Shown: piece after piece, positions 1 through 62,495 of the stretch
Position numbering within the stretch: position 1 is the stretch's first letter
Layout of the letters: every line of letters begins with the position of its first letter
IMG/VR virus record: IMGVR_UViG_3300042140_000143
Span: 1 to 62,495 of that record
Origin: a virus
Taxonomy: Duplodnaviria; Caudoviricetes
Direction: 5' to 3' (one strand)
DNA: 62,495 bases
The notes under the pieces: generated by a model
What the model was told of the DNA's origin: nothing
What the model saw: the letters and a program-made list of their open reading frames with translations, nothing else
Databases searched by the model: none
Position numbers and translations under genes: made by a program

Positions 1-83
1 CAACGGATGCAGCGGACAGCGTATCAACGTCCTTTGGCATGGCTCGTCTCCTCATCGCTGCCGCTGATCCTGTGCGTTCTCAG
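1..83 (+). repeat. attC-like site A (truncated copy; full copy at 61946-62036)
   Basis: caacgg-ATGCAGCGG-AC...G-CCGCTGAT-cctgtgc-GTTCTCAG; identical to 61954-62036. Confidence 0.85.
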
Positions 84-188
84 TCAGAAAATCATGTCTT
101 ATACGATACGTTTTTGCCTTACCACCTTTGCGACAGCCCATCCTCCATCAACGCTTCACCCCGTGCCGTGAACCAATCGACCATGAGA

Positions 189-638
189 CTAAGCCACCTC
201 ATGTCCGTCTCCAGCAAAGCGGCGATAAATCGACAGAAGCCCTTCGCGGGCGCGGTCGGCGGCGCTGTTTGTTGAGTGTTCCAGAAGTCGTATCGCCGCA
301 CGCACGCAATCACGCTCTTCGTCGGTAAGCGCTGGCCTCGCGTAGAGCGGAGCGACATCCCAGTTCCATTCGTCGGCGGCAGCGCGAGCCTGCTCGTAGA
401 GCGAGTAGACCGCCGACGATTCGCTGCCATCGGCGGCGAAGGCTACCCATGCGACAGGCTGCGGCCTATCAGTTTCGCGTTTCGCGAAAGGTCGCAACCT
501 CTCAAGCAGGCTGGAGATATGCGGCCCGTCGTGCATTGCAACGTGGCCGACAACGGCAACGTATTCCAGTGCGTCAAACTCGGCTTCGGTGATGTTCATT
601 CCATATTCCAGAACGCGATCCCGGCGGGTTCTCGTCAC
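189..638 (-). CDS. Cassette protein with PVAW...PLY and LTDEER modules (Ead/Eaa-like phage accessory protein)
   Basis: 149-aa ORF with QPVAW, PLY and LTDEERD motifs shared with neighbouring cassette genes; start uncertain. Confidence 0.7.
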   Translation of the reverse strand: MTRTRRDRVLEYGMNITEAEFDALEYVAVVGHVAMHDGPHISSLLERLRPFAKRETDRPQPVAWVAFAADGSESSAVYSLYEQARAAADEWNWDVAPLYARPALTDEERDCVRAAIRLLEHSTNSAADRAREGLLSIYRRFAGDGHEVA

Positions 639-825
639 CGCTTTATCAGTGCGGTCGATGCCCGCCGGGATCGCTGTGTCATGTTTCGTAGCAAAAAAAC
701 TGCACCCACCGCCGCCCCGCGCTGCCTAAGAGCATGAAGCCCGTGAGCCGCGTGGCACGCAGCCGTTCAGCAGACCGCAGGGCGACGATGGGCCATCGCA
801 GCCCACGCATGGTGGATGCGTCAAG

Positions 826-928
826 ACCGGGTGGCGGGAATCGAACCCGCGCCTTCGCAATCTGGTTGGTACTGCCGGGCGTGGCCCGGTGATCCCGTTT
901 CGATGCGCTACCATTACGCTACACCCGG
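826..928 (-). ncRNA. tRNA-like RNA with an expanded 49-nt anticodon domain
   Basis: Acceptor stem CCGGGTG/CACCCGG, TA, D-arm GCGT-AATGGTA-GCGC, T-arm GCGGG-TTCGATT-CCCGC; no canonical 17-nt anticodon arm. Confidence 0.7.
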
Positions 929-937
929 ATACGTTTT

Positions 938-1028
938 GTGAGAACCAGCCGATGCAACGGACGGCCCTGCGTCGTCATGTGTCATGGTGAGTCCTCGCGT
1001 GGCCGCCGTTGATCTTCCGCGTTCTCAC
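938..1028 (+). repeat. attC-like site B
   Basis: GTGAGAAC-N6-ATGCAACGG-AC...G-CCGTTGAT-N7-GTTCTCAC. Confidence 0.88.
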
Positions 1029-1342
1029 TCAGATCTGGCGAGCAGTGCCGCCATAACATCCGACCGCATCCGGTCTACCTTTTTACCAGAAAGCCGCACT
1101 ATTTTTGCAGCGTAGGCAATCGCCTCCCGCTCCTCGTCGGTGAGCGTGGCGTCCATGGTCACTGTCACGTTGCCGTCGCATACCGACAGCGTGGCGTCCT
1201 GCTCTGCTATGCGGCGAATGGCTTTTTTGAGCCGCTCATTTTCGGCCCGCAGGTCGTACACCTCTTGCGGCGTCCAATCGGCATCGCAGCCGCACTCGGA
1301 TTCCGAATGGGCCGCACACTTGCATCCTTTGCCGTCAGCCAT
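1025..1342 (-). CDS. Cassette protein, Cys-rich N-terminus and LTDEER C-terminal module
   Basis: AAGGAG RBS upstream of ATG 1342; stop TGA lies in R' of attC-B. Confidence 0.8.
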   Translation of the reverse strand: MADGKGCKCAAHSESECGCDADWTPQEVYDLRAENERLKKAIRRIAEQDATLSVCDGNVTVTMDATLTDEEREAIAYAAKIVRLSGKKVDRMRSDVMAALLARSE

Positions 1343-1353
1343 GCTTGCTCCTT

Positions 1354-1405
1354 GTGAGAACCACGCGATGCAGCGGACGGAGCCGCTGATCGCTGGCGTT
1401 ATCAC
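1354..1405 (+). repeat. attC-like site C (minimal, 3-nt terminal loop)
   Basis: GTGAGAAC-cacgcg-ATGCAGCGG-AC-gga-G-CCGCTGAT-cgctggc-GTTATCAC. Confidence 0.88.
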
Positions 1406-1752
1406 TTCAATCGCTCCAGAACGCTCCGCAGCGTATCGGCAGCGACACGGGATCGTGTCACCGGCATCGACTCGCACTCATCAATGGCGACTGCAACGGC
1501 CGCCCGCTCCTCGTCGGTGAGCCTGCCCCACGACCGCAATCGCTCAATCTCGGCCGCCGCCTCATGGCAGTCGAAATAGTGATCCTCGTCATCGGTGCCG
1601 ATCATGTTGGCCCGCGTCTGCCGCAGGCGGGTCACAATATCGCCGGTGCCCTCGCCGGGTCGGCTTGCCGCTTTATCGGTGCGGTGCCTGTCGGCGTCTG
1701 TACGGGCTATCGCCGCCGGCACGGCGTCATGATTTGTGTCAGAAAAACTCAT
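1402..1752 (-). CDS. Cassette protein with EAAAEIERLR and LTDEER...LERL modules
   Basis: ORF ends in R' of attC-C; shared C-terminal motif. Confidence 0.75.
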   Translation of the reverse strand: MSFSDTNHDAVPAAIARTDADRHRTDKAASRPGEGTGDIVTRLRQTRANMIGTDDEDHYFDCHEAAAEIERLRSWGRLTDEERAAVAVAIDECESMPVTRSRVAADTLRSVLERLK

Positions 1753-1768
1753 GCGGTTTTCTTTCGCT

Positions 1769-1860
1769 CTGAGAACCACGCGATGCAGCGGACCCGCGAT
1801 GCCGCCGTCTGGCTGTGGTTTCGTCAGCGGTCGCGGGCCGCTGATCGCTGGCGTTCACTG
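1769..1860 (+). repeat. attC-like site D
   Basis: CTGAGAAC-cacgcg-ATGCAGCGG-AC...G-CCGCTGAT-cgctggc-GTTCACTG. Confidence 0.88.
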
Positions 1861-2202
1861 GCTACTCTGATTCAAGATTTCCGCTGCCGCCAGCCTCCAT
1901 CGCAATCTCGCGTTCTCTGCGTGGAGAGCATTCAACTCCATCTCCATGACCTTGTATGCCTCTTGTCGAGACACGCGATCGCAAGCCGTGCGAATCTCAT
2001 ACCACTCGTTCCACGCATACAGCGGGACGACCTTTCTAACTCTGTCGGCAAATCGCCCCCGCAATCCGTCAACCTCAACCTTGTCGCGGCACAGCGGCAT
2101 AATGCTGCCGATGCCGTCAACCTCAACGATGTATGCCGCAGGAGCGACGCCCGCCAGTGAACCACGCGATGCAGCGGACATCTCATCTACCTCTTTCGTC
2201 AT
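1855..2202 (-). CDS. Cassette protein (PAAY...VVPLY module)
   Basis: RBS (AGGAG) and ATG inside attC-E; stop in R' of attC-D. Confidence 0.8.
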   Translation of the reverse strand: MTKEVDEMSAASRGSLAGVAPAAYIVEVDGIGSIMPLCRDKVEVDGLRGRFADRVRKVVPLYAWNEWYEIRTACDRVSRQEAYKVMEMELNALHAENARLRWRLAAAEILNQSSQ

Positions 2203-2245
2203 GGTTGCTCCTGTGTTCGATGCCGCTGATCGCTGGCGTTCTCAG
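2155..2245 (+). repeat. attC-like site E
   Basis: CAGTGAAC-cacgcg-ATGCAGCGG-AC...G-CCGCTGAT-cgctggc-GTTCTCAG. Confidence 0.88.
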
Positions 2246-2553
2246 CCTAATCGTTCCAGCATCCTGCGCAGCGTATCAGCAGCCTTCCTGCTTCGATCCT
2301 TGTCGTCCGGCTTCAGATCGTCCCAGCCGACGCATAGCGTGTCTGCTGCCCACTGAATCGCGCCCAACTCCGCATCAGCAGGAGGCTCTTGCCGGTACAG
2401 CGGCACAACATCGACGGGGCCGCCGCCCGCCCATTCCTGCGCGTCATACGCTCGGATAGCGACGTAGACAATGCTGCCGCCGTGTTCGACCGCCCACGCC
2501 GCAGCGTGAGAACCAACGGATGCAGCGGACAGCGTATCAACGTCTTTCGGCAT
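2242..2553 (-). CDS. Cassette protein, paralog of 61658-61993
   Basis: MPKDVDTLSAASVGS N-terminus encoded by attC-F; ends LERLG. Confidence 0.8.
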   Translation of the reverse strand: MPKDVDTLSAASVGSHAAAWAVEHGGSIVYVAIRAYDAQEWAGGGPVDVVPLYRQEPPADAELGAIQWAADTLCVGWDDLKPDDKDRSRKAADTLRRMLERLG

Positions 2554-2596
2554 GGTTCGTCTCCTTATCGCTGCCGCTGATCCTGCGTGTTCTGTG
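2506..2596 (+). repeat. attC-like site F (near-identical to A)
   Basis: GTGAGAAC-caacgg-ATGCAGCGG-AC...G-CCGCTGAT-cctgcgt-GTTCTGTG. Confidence 0.88.
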
Positions 2597-2597
2597 G

Positions 2598-2852
2598 CTA
2601 CCAATCAATCTCTGGAGGGGCAGGAAGCGGCATCCAGTGGGTTGGCCAGTTGGGAACCGTCCACCCGTAAAGCGTGTCGATCCATTCGCCGTCTCGGCAG
2701 TAGCCGAAAACCACTCGCCCGCCAAGCCACGCCAGAACCACTTTGCCTGCGTCGGGCAGCCGCTTCGTCACCGGAATCCAACCATCCGGTGTCGCCGGAT
2801 AGTTCGCCACAGAACCACGCATTGGAGCAGACCCGTCAGCGTCCTGTGTCAT
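2598..2852 (-). CDS. Cassette protein, DUF551-like
   Basis: WIPVTKRLP...THWMPLPAPP signature; RBS and ATG within attC-G. Confidence 0.8.
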   Translation of the reverse strand: MTQDADGSAPMRGSVANYPATPDGWIPVTKRLPDAGKVVLAWLGGRVVFGYCRDGEWIDTLYGWTVPNWPTHWMPLPAPPEIDW

Positions 2853-2894
2853 ATCAACGTCTCCTCTCGGGCTGCTCAATGCAGCCGTTCTCAC
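2808..2894 (+). repeat. attC-like site G (divergent L boxes)
   Basis: CACAGAAC-cacgca-TTGGAGCAG-AC...G-CTGCTCAA-tgcagcc-GTTCTCAC; compensatory changes keep pairing and the extra G. Confidence 0.85.
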
Positions 2895-3074
2895 ATTCTG
2901 GAATCTCTAAATGCCCCCGCCCACCCGGTGCGCTACCCATTGTCTGGACGCATTCGTCTAGGGGCTCGCCTCCACCCGCGTAGGCCGGTGACTGCCGCTC
3001 TGCATTCCGCTTTATCAGTGCGGCGCTGGAGCCGGGTGGTGACGTTGTTTCACTCATAATACGGTTTGTCATGG

Positions 3075-3302
3075 TCACTTGTGCTGCGGCACCCTCGTTG
3101 GCTTGCCGGGATGGTCGATCCCGTACATGGGATTTCCCATCACCCGGACCTCGCTGGAATCGACATGGACGACGGCACCCGTGTCGAACTGGTGGACGAG
3201 CCAGACCGTGTTGATGCTGGGGCCGTAGTCGATGAGGAACAGGGCGTGCCCCTCGCCCAGAGGCGTCGTGACCCAGAGCGGCGGGTTGCACTGGTGGATC
3301 AT
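3075..3302 (-). CDS. Hypothetical phage protein
   Basis: 75-aa ORF translationally coupled to the upstream gene. Confidence 0.65.
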   Translation of the reverse strand: MIHQCNPPLWVTTPLGEGHALFLIDYGPSINTVWLVHQFDTGAVVHVDSSEVRVMGNPMYGIDHPGKPTRVPQHK

Positions 3303-3592
3303 GGCCTCTCCGCCAGGAACTCCGCCCGGCCCTGCACCATCACGGCGTTGACGAGCCCGGCCACCACGCCGCCGGCCACCAAGCAGGCAAGCAGCAGGGA
3401 GATGAGCCGGTTGGTGCGGCGCACCTGAGCCATCTTGGCCTCGTGGTGCAGCCGCCAGACCCGCCGTTCCTCCATGTGCTTGGCGAGGAGGGCGTCAACG
3501 GCGTCCCACTCAAAGGCACCGCGAGCCGGAGTGGGCATCCTTTCCCACTCCGGCAGCGCAGCCACGAGGCGGTCGAGGTCTTCGACGGTCAT
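3299..3592 (-). CDS. Hypothetical membrane protein
   Basis: ATGA overlap with ssb; C-terminal hydrophobic helix. Confidence 0.65.
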   Translation of the reverse strand: MTVEDLDRLVAALPEWERMPTPARGAFEWDAVDALLAKHMEERRVWRLHHEAKMAQVRRTNRLISLLLACLVAGGVVAGLVNAVMVQGRAEFLAERP

Positions 3593-3939
3593 GCGAACGG
3601 AATCTCGTCGTCACCCACGCTCACAGCCTCCCGCTTGGGCCACCGGAGGCTGACGCCCACCTCATTTGCCATCAGACGCAAGGAGAAGCCCTGTGTGCCG
3701 TCCTTCTTCTGGTACGTCTCCAGACCCATCCGGCCGGAAACGACCACTCTCTGGCCCTTCTGGAGCGTCTCCGAGCATGTCTCGGCCTGCTCGTCAAAAC
3801 AGACCACCTCCACCCACGTCGTCGGCCCCTCCTTCTTCTCCGTCGAGGCCACCGAGAAGGTCAGCATGGCCTTCCCGCTCTTGGTGATCCGAATCTCGTT
3901 CACCTTGCCCACATTGCCAGTCACGGTCGCTTCGATCAT
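3589..3939 (-). CDS. ssb: Single-stranded DNA-binding protein
   Basis: TGNVG...FSVA...KGQRVVVSGR OB-fold motifs; acidic DDEIPF tail; GAGG RBS. Confidence 0.92.
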   Translation of the reverse strand: MIEATVTGNVGKVNEIRITKSGKAMLTFSVASTEKKEGPTTWVEVVCFDEQAETCSETLQKGQRVVVSGRMGLETYQKKDGTQGFSLRLMANEVGVSLRWPKREAVSVGDDEIPFA

Positions 3940-3977
3940 CGGTTCCTCTCTCTCATTGGGATGCTGGACAGGCGGAC

Positions 3978-4005
3978 AGCATACGCCTGGACGGGCGTAT
4001 AGCAA
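3978..4005 (-). promoter_or_regulatory. Candidate sigma70 promoter overlapping a palindromic operator
   Basis: TTGCTA-N16-TATGCT on the - strand; ATACGCC-N6-GGCGTAT palindrome at 3981-4000. Confidence 0.5.
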
Positions 4006-4024
4006 CCCCCCTACAGGCGTGGGG

Positions 4025-4570
4025 TCAGTATTTTGCGCCTTTTGCGAGGTTGTCTTTTGCCCACAAGGGCTGAAGGTTTGCGTAGTGGAAACACGCGGCC
4101 TGCTCGGACGGGCGAGATAGGTCGAACGATGCGCACGGGCGAATGTGGTCGATGTGCCACATTCGGCGGTTCTCCCATGTCATTCCAGGGAGGAACTTCG
4201 ATTCGATGTGTGACCGAAGCGCGTCGTGAGAACACCCGACAAGCCGAAGAGCGGAAGCGGCCTTCCGCTCTCCGCACAAAACACGGCGCAGTCGCTTTCT
4301 CAGCCGCAGCATCATGTCAAAGCCAGGATCGTGCGCGCGCCGCAACTTGTCCGCTTCCCTCCGGTCCTTTCGGAGTTTGGCGGCATATTCTGGGTCGTCT
4401 GCCCGCCTGCGGCGGCGACGTTCATTCGCAGCCATCCTCTTCTCAGCCTCTCGCATGGCGTAGGCAGAGTCATGCCAAAGCCTGTACAGCCTGCGCTCCT
4501 TGTTTCGCCGGCGGCGGTCGCTTGCAGTCCGCCCCCGACGCTCGCCCCGCGTCATCCATTTTGGATTCAC
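4025..4570 (-). CDS. HNH-like endonuclease
   Basis: WHIDHIRPCASFDL...CFHYANLQPLWAKDNLAKG motif; basic N-terminus. Confidence 0.8.
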   Translation of the reverse strand: MNPKWMTRGERRGRTASDRRRRNKERRLYRLWHDSAYAMREAEKRMAANERRRRRRADDPEYAAKLRKDRREADKLRRAHDPGFDMMLRLRKRLRRVLCGERKAASALRLVGCSHDALRSHIESKFLPGMTWENRRMWHIDHIRPCASFDLSRPSEQAACFHYANLQPLWAKDNLAKGAKY

Positions 4571-4894
4571 AGCACGCCTCCGTGCGGGCAGGCTCCCGCG
4601 CCGACGATCCTCTGGATAGGCTCACCTATTGGTGGGGGTCAATGATTTTGGGAAACTTTTGGCGGGGGGAACGTAACTAGGTGCGTGCGGGCGTTGGGGG
4701 GCTCAGGGGTGGGCCATCTATATGCAGGCCCCGCCGCTGAAAGCAAGGCACCAATCCTTCACGCTGTCCGTCGATACCGTGAACCGACCCGCCGCGACCC
4801 GTTTTGATCGCGGTCCATCCGCTGCGGCGTCTGTTCTGTGTCGGAGCGACGACGACGGGTGATCGTCGTGCTACCGACGAGGAGCATGTGAACC

Positions 4895-5431: not shown

Positions 5432-5536
5432 TTTGCCGCTGCGGAGTCTGGATGGTAGCGGCATCGGCTCGTGTCGGTGCCGCCTCCACCCGCACTTCGC
5501 GGGATGTGTTCGATGGTTCCACTGAGGAGACTTGCC

Positions 5537-5977: not shown

Positions 5978-6108
5978 TCGACCGCTGCGGCGTCTGGTTT
6001 GTGAGGGCCGACGACGGTTCGGGCAGGTTCGTAGCCTGCCCCCTCACTTCGCCCATCGCAACTTCGCGGTGGGCGTTTTTGTTTCCACGTTCCCATGAGG
6101 AGTCTGCC

Positions 6109-7495: not shown

Positions 7496-7717
7496 ATGCC
7501 GCACTTCTTGGTCGCACGCGACCGTGCCTACTGGGTGCGAGAGGTGATGCACATAGACGCCGCCACAGAGGAGGAGGCGGAGAACCAGTTCTACGAAACC
7601 TTCGACCCGGAACTGGAAATCGTCGGGCCGTTTCGTTTCGGCAACGCAACCCACGAAACCCCGCTCGAAGTGACTGCGTGCGAACCGCCGTCCCCTCCCG
7701 CTGCGGAGTCTGCGTGA
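7496..7717 (+). CDS. Hypothetical protein
   Basis: GGAGG RBS; 73 aa. Confidence 0.6.
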   Translation: MPHFLVARDRAYWVREVMHIDAATEEEAENQFYETFDPELEIVGPFRFGNATHETPLEVTACEPPSPPAAESA

Positions 7718-7833
7718 TGGGCAACAAGTGGGCCGATCAGCGGTAGGTCACCGCTGCGGCGTCTGGTTTCCGGCATGGGCCGTCCCGTTGTGGGGCGGCC
7801 CTTTCTTTTTCCCCCTTCACTGAGGAGTGAGGC

Positions 7834-9081
7834 ATGAGCGAGGACAACGAGGTCGAGTACGACTACTATGGGTTCGATGGCAACGGCATCCACCGTGACA
7901 CCGGCACGGAGTACGACCCCAACGGGTTCGATGCTGGCGGCATCCACAGCGTCACGGGCACCGAGTTCAGCAACACGACCCGCCGCACACGCGACGGCGA
8001 GCAGCGGGACTCGGAGGGCTACGACTACGGCGGCTACGACGAGGACGGGTACGACCGTGACGGGTACGACTCCGACGGGTACGACCACTGCGGCCACGAC
8101 CCCAGCGGCAACTCACGCTGCGAGAACGGCGAGTGCTACGACGACTCGTGCGAGTGCCACGAGTCCGACTTCGACTCGCAACTGGACGAGTACAGCACCC
8201 GTGCCCATCGCAAGCACACGTGGTCGGCGGACCCTGCTCTTGGCCCTTCGTACATGTACGCCGGGCACGAGATCGAGATGTACTCGGACGACGAGGACAT
8301 CGCGGACGTTGAGTACACGCTCGCCCAAGTGGACGGCCTGTACGCCAAACTCAACCCGCTGACTGGCAACGGCAGGTGTGCCATCGCCAAGCACGACGGC
8401 TCGCTGGAGGACAACGGGCCCGGCGGGTTTGAGTTGGTGACCGTGCCGCTCACGACCGAGCAGGTGTACGGCATCTTCGGGTCGTTCAAGACGCTGGGCA
8501 ACGGGCGCTGCTCCGCGTGGGACAAGGGCGACGACGTTGGGCACCACATCCACCTGTCGAAAGCAGCCGTCGGGCCGCTCACGCTGGGCAAGTTGCTCGT
8601 GTTCCTCAACGCCGAGCCGAACCGGAAGTTCCTTGAGTACATCGCCGGTCGGCCGGCGGGGTTCAACAAGTTCAGCCGCAAGAAGGTGACTGACCAAGAG
8701 AACCGCGACCGCTACGAGGTTCTCAACATCACCGACGAGACGGTCGAGTTCCGCCTGTTCAAGAGCAACCTGTACGGCAAGGCCATCCTCAAGAACCACG
8801 AGTTCGCGGTGGCTTCCGTGCGGTTCTGCGAGCAGGCGGCACACGGGTTCGGCGTGGTCGAGAACTCCACCGACCCGCTGCACTTCATCAACTTCCGCAG
8901 GTTCGTCGCCGCCAATCGCAGGACGTACCGTTACCTGCACGAGTTCATGCTCACCCACCCGGAGATTCGCGGCGGCTACTGCAACAACAGCGGCCTGCCT
9001 GAGAGCGTTGCCAAGCCGAAGGAACGCTCGCCCGTGTTCAACCTCGTCCGCACGTCCATGTCCGCCGTCACCGGTGCCTGA
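7834..9081 (+). CDS. Putative amidoligase (COOH-NH2 ligase type) with N-terminal GYD/GFD repeats
   Basis: GHEIE, HDGSL, GFELVT, HIH, RY..LN and TVEFR motifs. Confidence 0.78.
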   Translation: MSEDNEVEYDYYGFDGNGIHRDTGTEYDPNGFDAGGIHSVTGTEFSNTTRRTRDGEQRDSEGYDYGGYDEDGYDRDGYDSDGYDHCGHDPSGNSRCENGECYDDSCECHESDFDSQLDEYSTRAHRKHTWSADPALGPSYMYAGHEIEMYSDDEDIADVEYTLAQVDGLYAKLNPLTGNGRCAIAKHDGSLEDNGPGGFELVTVPLTTEQVYGIFGSFKTLGNGRCSAWDKGDDVGHHIHLSKAAVGPLTLGKLLVFLNAEPNRKFLEYIAGRPAGFNKFSRKKVTDQENRDRYEVLNITDETVEFRLFKSNLYGKAILKNHEFAVASVRFCEQAAHGFGVVENSTDPLHFINFRRFVAANRRTYRYLHEFMLTHPEIRGGYCNNSGLPESVAKPKERSPVFNLVRTSMSAVTGA

Positions 9082-29749: not shown

Positions 29750-30567
29750 AGTCTCCCCAGAACATGAGCCGGAAACGAAAGTTCAACGACCTCGCCGTGC
29801 GCTTCCGGCAACCACCAGTCGAGGTCTTCACGAAGACGGAGTTCAGCCAGCGCCTCATTCATGCGCTGGCGGCCAGCCGCAGTGACGTGCGGCGGCAGGG
29901 TCACGACCTGACAGTCGTGAGGGATGGCGGTGGAGATGACGATGAAGTGCAGGGGCTTGGACTCCAGCCCCATCGCCTCCATGCCGCACCGATACCATGC
30001 GTCCTGCAAGTGGTAGCGGAACCGAGCCACCGCACTCGGGAAGTCGGCGAGGATGTCGCCCTCGCGGGTGGTCTTGAGATCAACGACGATGCCGTCGCTG
30101 GTCAGCATGTCGAAGCGGCACTTGAGCCGGTGCCCGTCCTGCTCCCAGTACACGCTGAGTTCGTGTTCACTGGGCCTGGACAGCAGTTCAGCGGCAGACG
30201 GGTTGCTGAGGATGGCGTCCACCTCAGCCAGAATCTGGGCCCGCTCCTTCGGGTTGACCAAAATGGCCCCCTGCGGAGCCTCGTTTTTGGCCCACTTCTC
30301 CGCTTCTTTGCCCACGAGCCCGGTGGCCGTTAGGGTGGAAGCAGGAGGCACGACCAGCAATTCAAGGAAGTCTTCGCCCTCTTCCATCCACCGGTGCAGC
30401 AGGGTGCCGTGATCCATCGCGGCGCTGCTGAACGGCGGCAGGGACTTGGCGATGTACCGCTGGTGGTACAGGACGGGAGAGTCAAGGAGCGTTTTGACTC
30501 GACTGCATGACCTGTGCGTTTCATTGGCGTGATAGTCGGCGTTCGCTTCTCCTCGCCGAATCACGGT
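29746..30567 (-). CDS. RecE/ExoVIII-like PD-(D/E)XK exonuclease (DUF3799-like)
   Basis: DYHA, GTLLH, LKCRFD...DLKTT, YHLQDAWY; start uncertain. Confidence 0.85.
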   Translation of the reverse strand, partial: TVIRRGEANADYHANETHRSCSRVKTLLDSPVLYHQRYIAKSLPPFSSAAMDHGTLLHRWMEEGEDFLELLVVPPASTLTATGLVGKEAEKWAKNEAPQGAILVNPKERAQILAEVDAILSNPSAAELLSRPSEHELSVYWEQDGHRLKCRFDMLTSDGIVVDLKTTREGDILADFPSAVARFRYHLQDAWYRCGMEAMGLESKPLHFIVISTAIPHDCQVVTLPPHVTAAGRQRMNEALAELRLREDLDWWLPEAHGEVVELSFPAHVLGRL

Positions 30568-30688
30568 GCGCACATGGTGCGTGTGCGCACCGAACGTGAC
30601 AGGCGTAGCGGAAAGAGCGGTCGTGCTGGCCTGCCCAACGGTGCCGGCATCACCGCAACCTTCCTCTACTCTTGTAGGGGATATAACC

Positions 30689-31504
30689 ATGACCAGCCTC
30701 CGTGCCTTGATTGAGCGTTACCTGCAATCCCGATGCGTCAGCGCGGGCTACCGCGCCAACCTGAGAACCCTAGCCCGCTCCTGCAAAACGATGACTGTCC
30801 CAGCCGTCAACAGGCACCTGACTCGCCGCATGTCTGAGGTCAAGCCGATCTCGGTTGATTCTGACAGGCGCATGATCGTGAGCGTGTGGAGGTGGGCCTA
30901 CGAAACCGGCTTAGTGGATTCGCTGCCGCGTGGACTCGTCAAGATCAAAGTGCCTCGACTGCCCACGAAGGCATGGACTGTAGAACAGTGCTGTACGGCT
31001 GTCAAGGGGACTTACGAGCGGACTGCCATCATTCGCCAGAAGGGCGTCACGGAGGGCGAGTTGCTCCGCTGCTGGATACTGCTAGGCTACGAAACTGGGG
31101 CAAGGCAGGGCGACTTGTGGGAGATGCGCGACTCCGACTTTATCGACGGGGCTGTTCGGTGGGGACAGCACAAGACCGGCGAGCCGCACGTCAAGATTCT
31201 CAGCCCTGCCTGCATGAAGGCCGTCAACGACATGCTGGCGCGCTCGCCAGATGGGCGCGTGCTGGGGTGGGTGATGTCGAGTGGTGGCGGACGCAGGAAG
31301 ATGAAAAAATACCTCGCCTCCCTGCGGCTATCGGGGTCATCAAAGTGGCTGCGGCGTAGCGGGGCCACCCACATCGAGATGGAACATCCCGGCAAGGGGC
31401 GTCTGCATCTTGGTCACAAGACGCACGGGCTGGCCGAGCGTTGCTACATCGACTGGTCGCAGGTCAGGAGGGACATCCCAAGCACGCCCGTGCTACTCAA
31501 ATAG
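30689..31504 (+). CDS. Tyrosine recombinase (phage integrase family)
   Basis: YETGAR..DL, HKTG, WLRRSGAT, LGH, ERCY; lone + strand gene between replication and virion modules. Confidence 0.88.
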   Translation: MTSLRALIERYLQSRCVSAGYRANLRTLARSCKTMTVPAVNRHLTRRMSEVKPISVDSDRRMIVSVWRWAYETGLVDSLPRGLVKIKVPRLPTKAWTVEQCCTAVKGTYERTAIIRQKGVTEGELLRCWILLGYETGARQGDLWEMRDSDFIDGAVRWGQHKTGEPHVKILSPACMKAVNDMLARSPDGRVLGWVMSSGGGRRKMKKYLASLRLSGSSKWLRRSGATHIEMEHPGKGRLHLGHKTHGLAERCYIDWSQVRRDIPSTPVLLK

Positions 31505-61210: not shown

Positions 61211-61354
61211 CTACTTCGCCAGCAGGTACAGCCCCACGTTGGAAAAGGCGTACCCCAGATAGGCGACCCCCATGCCGGGATTGCCACGCCAGAACTGCTC
61301 TACGGAGACGTAGGCGTAGATCACGCCGGTCAGTGCGATCAGCCAGCCGCTCAT
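61211..61354 (-). CDS. Small membrane protein
   Basis: MSGWLIALTG...GYAFSNVGL; ATGA-coupled. Confidence 0.6.
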   Translation of the reverse strand: MSGWLIALTGVIYAYVSVEQFWRGNPGMGVAYLGYAFSNVGLYLLAK

Positions 61355-61560
61355 TTTGTGCGCTCCAGCAGGGCCCGCAGCGTGTTGGCTTCCGCAGACG
61401 GCGAGACGAATCCGATCAGTCTGTCAATCGCCGCCCGCTCGTCAGCCGTCAGCAGGCCCGAAGCCTCCTCCTGCAACTCCTGCATCTCGCGCCACATCCG
61501 TCGCTCTCTGGGCGTGCAGTCGCAGTTCATCGGCTTCTGGTCGCAGATCGGGCAGGGCAT
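61351..61560 (-). CDS. Small protein with the cassette-type LT.DER...LLER module (outside the array)
   Basis: GAGGA RBS; CPIC...CDC. Confidence 0.7.
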   Translation of the reverse strand: MPCPICDQKPMNCDCTPRERRMWREMQELQEEASGLLTADERAAIDRLIGFVSPSAEANTLRALLERTK

Positions 61561-61623
61561 TGGCTTGTCCTCATAACGCGGGCTTGTGGCTGTTTCTCGG
61601 CCTATAACCGCACTCGCCGCCGG

Positions 61624-61663
61624 ATTAGGCTGCGAACTGGCAGCCTAATTCTTGTTCTCAGCC
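61624..61663 (+). other. attI-like head site of the cassette array
   Basis: ATTAGGCTGC-N6-GCAGCCTAAT hairpin, then TCTT-GTTCTCAGCC; a GTT core with no attC arms. Confidence 0.55.
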
Positions 61664-61993
61664 TAGCCGTTCCAGCAATCCCCGAAGCGCCACAGCGTCA
61701 GCCGCCGCAGCCTTGTCACCAAATAGTCTCGCGTCCTGCTCTGCCCCCTCCAGCGCCTCCCGAATCGCCGCTCGCTCCGCTGCCGTAAGGGTTGGAGGCG
61801 GCGTCAGGTACAGAGGCAGAATGTCCTGCTCGCTCCTGCCGTTGTGCCGTGCGCTTGCCTCTGCCCACTTTCGCTGTGGATGTACCGACACCGCCCGCGT
61901 GCGGCTGCTGACGAGTGCCGGATTGCCGACCGACCAAGCAACCGGCTGAGAACCAACGGATGCAGCGGACAGCGTATCAACGTCCTTTGGCAT
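61658..61993 (-). CDS. First cassette protein (PVAW...PLY and LT..ER...LERLG)
   Basis: RBS and ATG inside attC-A; stop in the GTTCTCA core at 61654. Confidence 0.8.
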   Translation of the reverse strand: MPKDVDTLSAASVGSQPVAWSVGNPALVSSRTRAVSVHPQRKWAEASARHNGRSEQDILPLYLTPPPTLTAAERAAIREALEGAEQDARLFGDKAAAADAVALRGLLERLG

Positions 61994-62036
61994 GGCTCGT
62001 CTCCTCATCGCTGCCGCTGATCCTGTGCGTTCTCAG
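61946..62036 (+). repeat. attC-like site A (full copy)
   Basis: CTGAGAAC-caacgg-ATGCAGCGG-AC...G-CCGCTGAT-cctgtgc-GTTCTCAG. Confidence 0.88.
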
Positions 62037-62044
62037 TCAGAAAA

Positions 62045-62290
62045 TCATGTCTTATACGATACGTTTTTTGTCGGCCCCGCCCCGCCTACATCAGTGACCG
62101 ACGCGGTGCGTGGGCCTTCGACGGGAGCAGGGCCGACGTTCGGGATGGCAAGCCGCATGGCGGCCTCAATCATTTGAGTGGCGCGGCCGTGCTCTGGCTG
62201 GTCGCAAACATCCATCAGAGTGTCGCGGTAGTCCTGCGCACAACTGACGCAGAACAGGATGGCCTCGCATTCTTCGGCGGTGAGTGTCAT
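62045..62290 (-). CDS. Alternative cassette protein
   Basis: MTLTAEECEAI...; ATGA-coupled to a 22-aa leader starting at 62355 inside attC-B'. Confidence 0.65.
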   Translation of the reverse strand: MTLTAEECEAILFCVSCAQDYRDTLMDVCDQPEHGRATQMIEAAMRLAIPNVGPAPVEGPRTASVTDVGGAGPTKNVSYKT

Positions 62291-62307
62291 GTTTTTTCGC
62301 AGAAAAA

Positions 62308-62398
62308 CTGAGAACCAGCCGATGCAACGGACGGCCATGCGTCGTCATGTGTCATGGTGAGTCCTCCGGTGGCCGCCGTTGATCTTCCGCGTTCTCAC
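62308..62398 (+). repeat. attC-like site B' (allele of B)
   Basis: Same as 939-1028 with 3 internal substitutions. Confidence 0.88.
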
Positions 62399-62495
62399 TC
62401 AGATCTGGCGAGCAGTGCCGCCATAACATCCGACCGCATCCGGTCTACCTTTTTACCAGAAAGCCGCACTATTTTTGCAGCGTAGGCAATCGCCT

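Follow-up and report, generated by a model that had tools for sequence, protein, structure and literature searches.

In integrons, promoterless gene cassettes are expressed from one platform promoter (Pc), and strand selectivity guarantees that they are held in one orientation; the canonical cassette carries its open reading frame (ORF) on the top strand of its recombination site, attC, with the stop codon near the R'' box. Large chromosomal integrons also contain some cassettes that have their own promoter or are reversed, such as the toxin-antitoxin cassettes of Vibrio arrays. T4-type phages have PeSL cassettes, in which small accessory genes are flanked by conserved stem-loops with expression signals and are shuffled between relatives; PeSLs carry promoters, and their movement is thought to occur by homologous recombination. 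Here, we analyse an array of hairpin repeats and small genes in IMG/VR virus record IMGVR_UViG_3300042140_000143 (hereafter the window, i.e. the whole stretch of 62,495 bases that was analysed). We conclude that this array is likely a cluster of attC sites lacking an integron integrase (CALIN), built of Planctomycetota-type (Pirellulales-like) attC sites with the genes reversed, in a probably temperate freshwater phage, and that the integron integrase (IntI) of a host would act on it in trans.

The geometry of attC sites, as described by Nivina et al., consists of core boxes, an unequal spacer, a second inverted repeat and bulges on one arm; the bulge geometry of the bottom strand is described in PMC5027507, which gives AAC as the only stretch conserved across all attC sites. 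A CALIN is an attC cluster without integrase, in which two or more sites lie on one strand at spacings below 4 kb and no intI is nearby (Cury et al. 2016, PMC4889954). Phage CALINs with DNA methyltransferase cargo and attC sites that IntI1 can recombine have been reported (Qi et al. 2023, PMC9892861): 17 were found, mostly with two or few sites, and cassettes in the same direction were called typical. The array described here resembles them in having no intI, in its methyltransferase cargo and in having one boundary at a terminator-like hairpin with GTT boxes, and differs from them in scale, with at least nine sites in one phage and more than 100 contigs sharing one attC family.

An array of attC-like hairpins wraps round the contig ends

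The record has a CheckV completeness of 98% and a G+C content of 64%. The array wraps round the contig ends (from 61.6 kb to 2.9 kb), the range 1855-2894 to which the first-pass annotation referred being its right-hand third. It contains at least nine hairpin repeats, all on the + strand: A (61947-62035, with the second, cut copy at 1-82), B' (62309-62397), B (939-1027), C (1355-1404, 50 nt, loop absent), D (1770-1859), E (2156-2244), F (2507-2595) and the degenerate G (2809-2893). All copies from A to G start with NNNNAAC and finish with GTTNNNN. The motif GAACCNNNNGATGCARCGGAC has seven exact + strand matches in the window and eight with up to three mismatches, where 0.65 would be expected and none of 100 shuffles reaches eight. 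Sites A and F are 93% identical, and the R' boxes of C and D are altered.

The repeat follows the plan NNNNAAC, 5 nt, GAT-G-CAGCGG-A, a loop of 3-45 nt, CCGCTG-ATC, 6 nt and GTTNNNN. Folded as DNA, either strand forms a long hairpin with imperfect pairing, in which two bulges of one base each are separated by 6 bp; the bulged bases are G and A on the 5' arm of the + strand, and C and T on the 3' arm of the - strand. The 5' arm of the + strand bears both unpaired bases and also the shorter spacer (5 vs 6 nt, when the L box is counted from GAT/ATC), so that by the bulged-base rule of attC geometry the - strand of the window is the attC bottom strand. The first-pass annotation had taken + as the top strand from the extrahelical bases and 6/7 spacers; the asymmetry and the strand stand, and the spacer count, which depends on the definition used, is 5/6 here.

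The family is not confined to this phage. A pattern scan of IMG/VR with the arm motif returned at least 117 contigs, and a looser search for both arms gave 250 complete elements, which are distributed over 105 of the 117 listed loci and fall into two size classes of about 50-58 nt (almost no loop) and about 87-91 nt. When 144 distinct long elements were aligned, the L helix was 92% paired, 11 of 15 pairs changed on both sides and the covariation score was 0.253, against 0.093 for shuffled alignments (none of 500 reached the observed value) and at most 0.081 with slid partners. The AAC/GTT columns are paired in 99.3% of cells in these elements, and are present in all eight window copies.

The same repeats adjoin integron integrase genes in Planctomycetota

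In a scan of species-representative genomes, complete elements were found in 27 of 120 matched loci and, among the matches listed, most came from Planctomycetota, Pirellulales or Planctomycetia bins. The IntI model TIGR02249 scored above the NCBIfam cut-off in three of five element-bearing bins (384-459 bits vs 265) and in none of 14 control genomes; in the fourth bin the match is split over two frames (263 + 104 bits). The locus concerned in this fourth bin, a Pirellulales bin (G001:C48), is chromosomal, and its intI is followed by six sites of the phage attC family on the same strand. Its cassette genes, which encode a PemK toxin, a short-chain dehydrogenase fragment and a DUF2442 protein, are sense to the strand that corresponds to the window's +, and each lies upstream of its own site. 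For the intI itself (7700-8560, - strand, in locus L254), the TIGR02249 matches are spread over two overlapping frames (residues 1-96 and 129-315), owing either to an error of assembly or to a frameshift that has made it a pseudogene; the gene is directed towards its own array, a 'reverse integron' layout. Within the stretches examined at two IntI loci (G002:C260 and G002:C286) there was no site of the phage attC family, and the IntI locus G005:C147 has a related but divergent site family. Because the same repeat family adjoins integron integrase genes, with sense cassettes, in Planctomycetota bins, we consider the phage repeats to be attC sites.

Cassette genes are antisense to attC throughout the phage family

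To analyse gene orientation, the longest ORF per strand (50 aa or more) was taken from each cassette, duplicates were removed and the products were scanned against Pfam. In the phage arrays, 120 antisense ORFs (a random sample of 136) gave DUF551 in 18 cases and single matches to a C5 methylase, an N6/N4 methylase, Mom, Dam, a HAD hydrolase and AP2, and the 100 top-strand ORFs gave no Pfam match. The bacterial arrays (39 cassettes from 11 loci) showed the reverse: 24 Pfam families for 38 top-strand ORFs and one match for 35 antisense ORFs, to an IS110 transposase. This IS110-family gene represents an insertion sequence inside a bacterial cassette array. The antisense-only matches imply that genes are antisense to attC throughout the whole phage family, and the canonical organisation, with the ORF on the attC top strand and upstream of attC, is not found in the phage cassettes. 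Together with the ORF map of the window, they also bear out the initial claim that every cassette ORF of the window lies on the - strand. Six-frame counts of synonymous and non-synonymous changes in nine homologous body pairs revealed codon periodicity and did not separate sense from the antisense frame that shares its third position; the median open-frame share was 0.98 for antisense and 0.85 for top strand, a weak discriminator at 64% GC.

Start and stop codons lie inside or beside the attC

If cassettes are taken to begin at the TT of a GTTNNNN box and to finish with the G of the following one, each body carries its own attC at the right end of the + strand. The gene lies on the attC bottom strand, and its stop codon falls within or next to the TTNNNN remnant at the opposite end. 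Delimited in this way, the window contains the following cassettes, all of them on the - strand. The first (61655..62029) has ORF 61658-61993 (111 aa, MPKDVDTLSAASVGS...) and attC A, with a Shine-Dalgarno sequence and ATG in the loop. Cassette Y (62030..62391, attC B') opens with a 22-aa leader ORF from a loop ATG at 62355, followed by an ATGA overlap with the main ORF, and cassette X (77..1021, attC B, ORF 189-599) is its alternative at the same place. Cassette 1022..1398 has ORF 1025-1342 and the short attC C, with the Shine-Dalgarno sequence AAGGAG and the ATG just outside R''; cassette 1399..1853 has ORF 1402-1752 and attC D, whose loop is of the bacterial non-coding type and has no ATG. 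In cassette 1854..2238 (ORF 1855-2202, 115 aa, MTKEVDEMSAASRGS...), the loop of attC E has AGGAG 5 nt before the ATG at 2202. Cassette 2239..2589 (ORF 2242-2553, 103 aa, MPKDVDTLSAASVGS..., attC F) stops at the TGA of TGAGAAC, the R' box of E. Finally, cassette 2590..2887 (ORF 2598-2852, 84 aa, MTQDADGSAPMRGS..., Pfam E 7e-11 for DUF551) has the degenerate attC G. The preceding gene on the ssb side (ORF 2854..3072, - strand) runs across the R' and L' boxes of attC G, its stop lying 1 nt short of the ATG that opens ORF 2598-2852.

The loops of sites A, B, B', E, F and G thus hold an ATG with GGAG or AGGAG ahead of it, and in the L''/R'' arm the frame gives SAASVGS (A, F), SVASAGS (B, B'), SAASRGS (E) or SAPMRGS (G), which matches exactly the ribosome-binding sites, starts and peptides named by the first-pass annotation. 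More generally, the loop of the sites of about 89 nt consists of a Shine-Dalgarno sequence, an ATG and eight codons, and the arm is read as S-x-A-S-x-G-S at codons 9-15. Codon 2 of the arm peptide may be GCT, GTT, CCT, GGT or ATT (A, V, P, G or I) and the other arm changes to match; these compensating changes show that it is the base pairing, and not the peptide, that is conserved. Sites C and D have no loop ATG, and ORFs 1025-1342 and 1402-1752 begin just outside R'', so the notion of a start written into the attC applies to the long class and fails for these two. At the other end, a TGA inside the R' box terminates ORFs 1855-2202, 2242-2553, 61658-61993, 1025-1342 and 1402-1752, and the stop of ORF 2598-2852 is a TAG 2 nt outside the box, in line with the suggestion that stops mostly fall in R' (TGAGAAC on the - strand). 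Across the phage family, an ATG in frame is present in the loop of 78 of 119 long right-hand sites, and 58 of the 78 ORFs that start there end no more than 13 nt from the following R box, 28 of them precisely with the TGA of TGAGAAC. The loop starts of B and B' open mere leaders of 22-23 codons. The ATGA overlap that follows the B' leader and the end of ORF 2854-3072 beside the next ATG point to putative translational coupling through the hairpin.

A crossover signature and probable exchange of cassettes at GTT

The 6 nt that follow the GTT of one site and the 6 nt that precede the AAC of the next are complementary at a mean of 4.52 of six positions, and perfectly so in 36 of 149 cases, compared with means of 3.04 within one site, 2.71 for reversed boxes and 2.90 for random pairs; in situ, the four outer R-box pairs are just 62% paired. 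Complementarity across the cassette was seen with at least ten different box sequences. In the window, the ends of cassettes 1854..2238 (TTCACTGG...CCAGTGAAC) and 2590..2887 (GTTCTGTGG...CCACAGAAC) are complementary at 9 of 9 positions, and GTTCACTGG/CCAGTGAAC likewise match at 9 of 9. Judged from the sequences, this pattern is what an integron-type crossover at G|TT would leave behind.

Sixteen homologous cassette-body pairs from different contigs were also compared. In five of them the body and the right-hand attC stay identical and the left attC differs; in these pairs homology begins at GTTNNNN on the left and stops directly past GTT on the right (e.g. GTT|ATGC vs GTT|CTGT). Scored by identity, the body is linked to the right element in five pairs, to the left in three and similarly to both in eight; such linkage is only partly informative, as attC subfamilies are common to many cassettes. 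A related-locus search with the 577-aa neighbour protein gave one relative only. In relative L256, whose backbone is 95% identical, homology ends at 61658 inside the boundary GTTCT and a different cassette follows. The homology breaks place the crossover near GTT, at a resolution coarser than the exact phosphodiester bond, and exceptions occur.

The contig ends provide a probable example of exchange within one assembly. They carry the same sequence (61954-62060 equals 1-107, and 62309-62495 equals 939-1125 with three differences) and only the A-B interval differs between them, being 823 nt in one and about 250 nt in the other; the first 35 nt or so past R' of A are common to both variants. Two alternative cassettes, X and Y, are therefore present at one position in the assembly, and the phage population contains at least two variants there, which probably kept the assembler from closing the genome. 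In Logan contigs, at least 60% of the words sampled from window 1-3300 are present in 16 freshwater or lake DNA runs. The contigs of four runs are interrupted at the sites, and several go from an R box into unlike sequence (e.g. after 2241-2243, 1400 and 2890, and before 1853); long contigs in those runs span 2515-4200. Since repeats of at least 31 nt would by themselves branch assemblies, the breaks lend weak support to variable neighbours. In run X15 the part 2245-4200 is almost uncovered, which is not evidence of absence, and the RNA runs X17-X20 contain 5-6% of the sampled words.

The complementarity of R' and R'' and the breaks at GTT place the ORF, its start and its stop within one cassette, which supports the view that each unit carries its own translation start. 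A cassette that moved would take its whole translation unit along, because start, codons and stop all lie within its bounds.

Cassette cargo and neighbouring features

A Pfam scan of the nine window cassette ORFs gave DUF551 as the sole significant match, and an ESM Atlas search with ORFs 1855-2202 and 2242-2553 gave no lead, with best scores of 0.84 and 0.86, below a meaningful level. Several cassette proteins are paralogous (61351-62008, 189-599, 1402-1752 and 2242-2553, all on the - strand), sharing PLY, LTDEER..A and a C-terminal ADTLR..LERL[GK]; these proteins match no Pfam family. The G+C content at third codon positions (GC3) is 0.58-0.72 in the cassette ORFs and 0.80-0.90 in four backbone genes, which agrees with a putatively separate, exchanged gene pool. 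The array (window 1-3000) also has a G+C content of 0.61, against 0.64-0.68 elsewhere, and the strongest negative GC skew in the genome; the skew of the window indicated no replication origin.

The left boundary of the array (61622-61660, + strand) consists of a 12-bp terminator-like hairpin (61622-61651) and, after it, a single GTTCTCA (61654-61660), and is a candidate secondary or attI-like entry site. IntI is also able to place cassettes into double-stranded DNA at GWT sites, with no bias for either strand (bioRxiv 10.1101/2022.09.11.507474), and such insertion could explain the seeding of the array at this boundary.

Matches to the Rfam DUF3800-VIII RNA were found on the - strand in cassette X (711-786) and in cassette Y (62071-62136), with 43 and 61 bits; cassette cargo of integron type would here include a structured non-coding RNA. 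Cassette X also contains a tRNA-like gene (826-928, - strand), which scores 52 bits with the Rfam tRNA model and has intact acceptor, D and T arms, with 43 nt in the anticodon arm where 11 are expected. ARAGORN called no tRNA, the segment 826-928 included; as cassette cargo, this gene might be a tRNA with an intron, a disrupted tRNA or a tRNA mimic. A perfect 14-bp inverted repeat (615-628/661-674) encloses the motif CCGCTTTATCAGTGCGG, variants of which recur in two other - strand ORFs (1660-1687 and 2999-3026).

Upstream of the array in the direction of the cassette genes lies an SSB-like ORF (3589..4005, - strand), a label taken from the first-pass annotation and not confirmed by family search. 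Further on, a second repeat family, (C)CGCTGCGG(C/A)GTCTG followed by a T-rich stretch, stands 3' of each small + strand gene in the divergent early block (+ strand, at about 4808-4830, 5435-5455, 5980-6000, 6790, 7215 and 7705); its first copy scored as terminator-like. A blastn search in distant mode with window 1-4100 against 50,697 deposited phages gave no match.

Discussion

The region contains eight complete sites and a boundary box within about 3.8 kb, all on one strand, in a record without IntI, as a CALIN does; of the intI, attI and Pc that stand beside the array of a complete integron, neither an intI nor a sigma-70-like promoter was found, and the left boundary is a hairpin with a lone GTTCTCA. 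We consider a reversed CALIN of Planctomycetota-type sites the likely interpretation because: (i), the same repeat family forms sense arrays linked to IntI in bacteria, (ii), Pfam matches in the phage arrays are confined to the antisense strand and (iii), the crossover signature places ORF, start and stop in one cassette. As no IntI is encoded in the window, the recombinase must come in trans, and we propose that host IntI may recombine the sites during lysogeny or infection. The related records that bear the motif range from 32 to 154 kb and thus do not belong to one phage lineage.

Expression and mobility may be connected in such an array. All ORFs from 4570 through the array to the structural genes are on the - strand. 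A promoter scan detected no sigma-70-like site in the array (Planctomycetota or phage promoters may differ), and a terminator scan only weak terminator-like sites. From the orientation of the genes and the lack of promoter-like sites, read-through transcription of the - strand genes from the ssb side would be the economical reading, and it would make the attC bottom strand the non-template strand. It has been reported that excision rises when the lagging-strand template carries the attC bottom strand, and that large chromosomal arrays avoid this orientation (Loot et al., PMC5371416). It is tempting to speculate that, if replication is co-directional, the recombinogenic strand of the phage array would be both non-template and lagging-strand template, i.e. 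where folding is easiest, and that transcription could be coupled to hairpin extrusion.

Several observations weigh against a reversed CALIN served by host IntI. First, no IntI was found within the 62.5-kb window (no NCBIfam match to TIGR02249), nor did an IntI match at E <=1e-5 occur in any of 48 related viral records, of which 17 have a completeness of 90% or more. Second, the elements were gathered by a consensus pattern, which favours well-paired copies. Third, the extended consensus RYYYAAC/GTTRRRY is not seen beyond AAC/GTT in the window boxes (TGAGAAC, AGTGAAC, ACAGAAC; GTTCTCA, GTTATCA, GTTCACT, GTTCTGT); IntI-linked bacterial sites of the same family depart from it likewise (e.g. GTTCTGC and GTTCGCC). 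Fourth, G:T pairs are commoner on the top strand (0.52 vs 0.28) and the bottom strand is stabler by a mean of 0.3 kcal/mol only (in 161 of 271 elements, the top strand being stabler in 97), which is unlike the bias published for the attC sites of mobile integrons. Fifth, many of the complementary R pairs come from related cassettes, such as those with DUF551, so that their count is not one of independent events. Finally, the left element is the more similar one in three of the 16 body pairs and both flanking elements differ in several, which implies that exchange within the 20-nt conserved arms also occurs or that strand choice is loose.

Some of these observations are shared by an alternative that we regard as improbable, namely that the hairpins are primarily RNA elements of the - strand message (serving translational coupling, start-site presentation or mRNA stabilisation between small phage genes), that duplication and homologous recombination in the arms spread them, and that their likeness to attC is incidental. 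The Shine-Dalgarno sequence and ATG at a fixed distance in the loop, with the upstream stop at the foot of the stem, would suit such elements, as would leader ORFs that end in ATGA overlaps; some bodies have different right-hand elements, with breaks in the conserved arm as homologous exchange gives, and neither G:T counts nor folding energy strongly favours one DNA strand. However, the same arms flank sense cassettes beside intI in bacteria, where they stand downstream of the genes and have no loop ATG; complementarity across the cassette, rather than within the hairpin, has no RNA rationale; and the loop-less short sites, which have no start signal, still keep the arms and bulges. A secondary RNA role of the hairpins is nevertheless likely.

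The cassettes might instead be recombined by the phage's own enzyme. The only tyrosine recombinase of the window is a divergent phage-type integrase (30566..31504, + strand; PHROG phrog_1, E 4.4e-14), which has counterparts in the relatives: PF00589 matches occur in 30 of the 48 related viral records, and 15 of the 17 near-complete ones (90% or more) have one. Yet this gene lies 29 kb from the array, reaches only 17 bits with PF00589 (under the cut-off), matches neither TIGR02249 nor any other NCBIfam model and shows only weak similarity to lambda Int in PDB; two of the 17 near-complete records have no PF00589 match at all; temperate phages are expected to carry a phage integrase anyway; and the attC family with its bulge geometry is that of arrays linked to true IntI. 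We therefore give little credence to this possibility. Least of all do we favour a fossil array, which would have arisen by a single entry from a host integron or by tandem duplication, with immobile cassettes and repeats kept by descent, as the paralogous cassette proteins, the near-identity of A and F, the degenerate G and the altered R' boxes of C and D might suggest, for two alternative cassettes occupy the same position at the contig ends, the first cassette differs in a relative with a 95% identical backbone, identical cassettes stand between different neighbours in other contigs, contigs of four lake or freshwater runs pass into unlike sequence at R boxes (where repeats of at least 31 nt also branch), the motif occurs in phage records as different in size as 32 and 154 kb, and the cassettes differ from the backbone in GC3.

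Taken as a reversed CALIN, the phage array is closest to the chromosomal integrons of Planctomycetota such as that of G001:C48, with which it has in common the AAC/GTT boxes, the unpaired spacer, the L boxes, the bulges 6 bp apart and the variable loop, as well as an outer R' that belongs to the next cassette and many small cassettes. The Planctomycetota arrays have intI, sense ORFs and a conserved non-coding loop (TCGCGAT...GGTCGCG), whereas the phage arrays have no intI, antisense ORFs and a Shine-Dalgarno sequence, ATG and eight codons in about two-thirds of long-site loops. PeSL cassettes, for their part, have neither AAC/GTT core sites, nor the bulged-base geometry, nor a link to an integron integrase. 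The reversed or own-promoter cassettes of the Vibrio type (in part, PMC8876359) are similarly Pc-independent, with some genes reversed, but they are a minority within sense arrays and have promoters, whereas here the whole array is reversed, gave no promoter-like site in the scan and has its start signals in the attC loop. Antisense genes or starts within attC are not described in section 3.4 of Qi et al. (PMC9892861), whose supplementary tables may give orientations, and full-text searches of the literature gave no description of reversed cassettes with a translation start in the attC loop. Phage CALINs are thus already known, and it is the uniformly reversed design with an attC-embedded start that appears to be new.

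A bolder extension, which we put forward only tentatively and consider rather doubtful, is that Planctomycetota phages keep a mirror-image cassette pool, hyper-mobile with host IntI, through which unrelated phages trade anti-defence genes. In such a pool, the attC before a gene would be recombination site, 5' leader, ribosome entry site and N-terminal coding sequence at once. If this were true, the arrays, with their recombinogenic strand as non-template strand and, given co-directional replication, as lagging-strand template, would be hyper-mobile whenever the host's SOS-inducible IntI is present, and unrelated phages (32-154 kb) would trade methylases, Mom and DUF551 proteins by means of the host integrase. 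A phage cassette caught by a host integron would face Pc and a host cassette in a phage would be antisense, which would keep the two pools apart in expression.

The reversed arrays have consequences beyond this locus. Integron finders that assume sense ORFs will mis-annotate them, and the family illustrates how a nucleic-acid constraint can fix a seven-residue 'tag', S-x-A-S-x-G-S, on dozens of unrelated proteins. As a natural experiment, they also allow one to ask how the mobility of cassettes depends on the attC strand, on transcription and on the direction of replication. A large environmental phage family uses integron sites with the opposite gene orientation and with the start in the recombination hairpin, and integron-type exchange would be a route by which accessory genes pass between unrelated phages of one host group.

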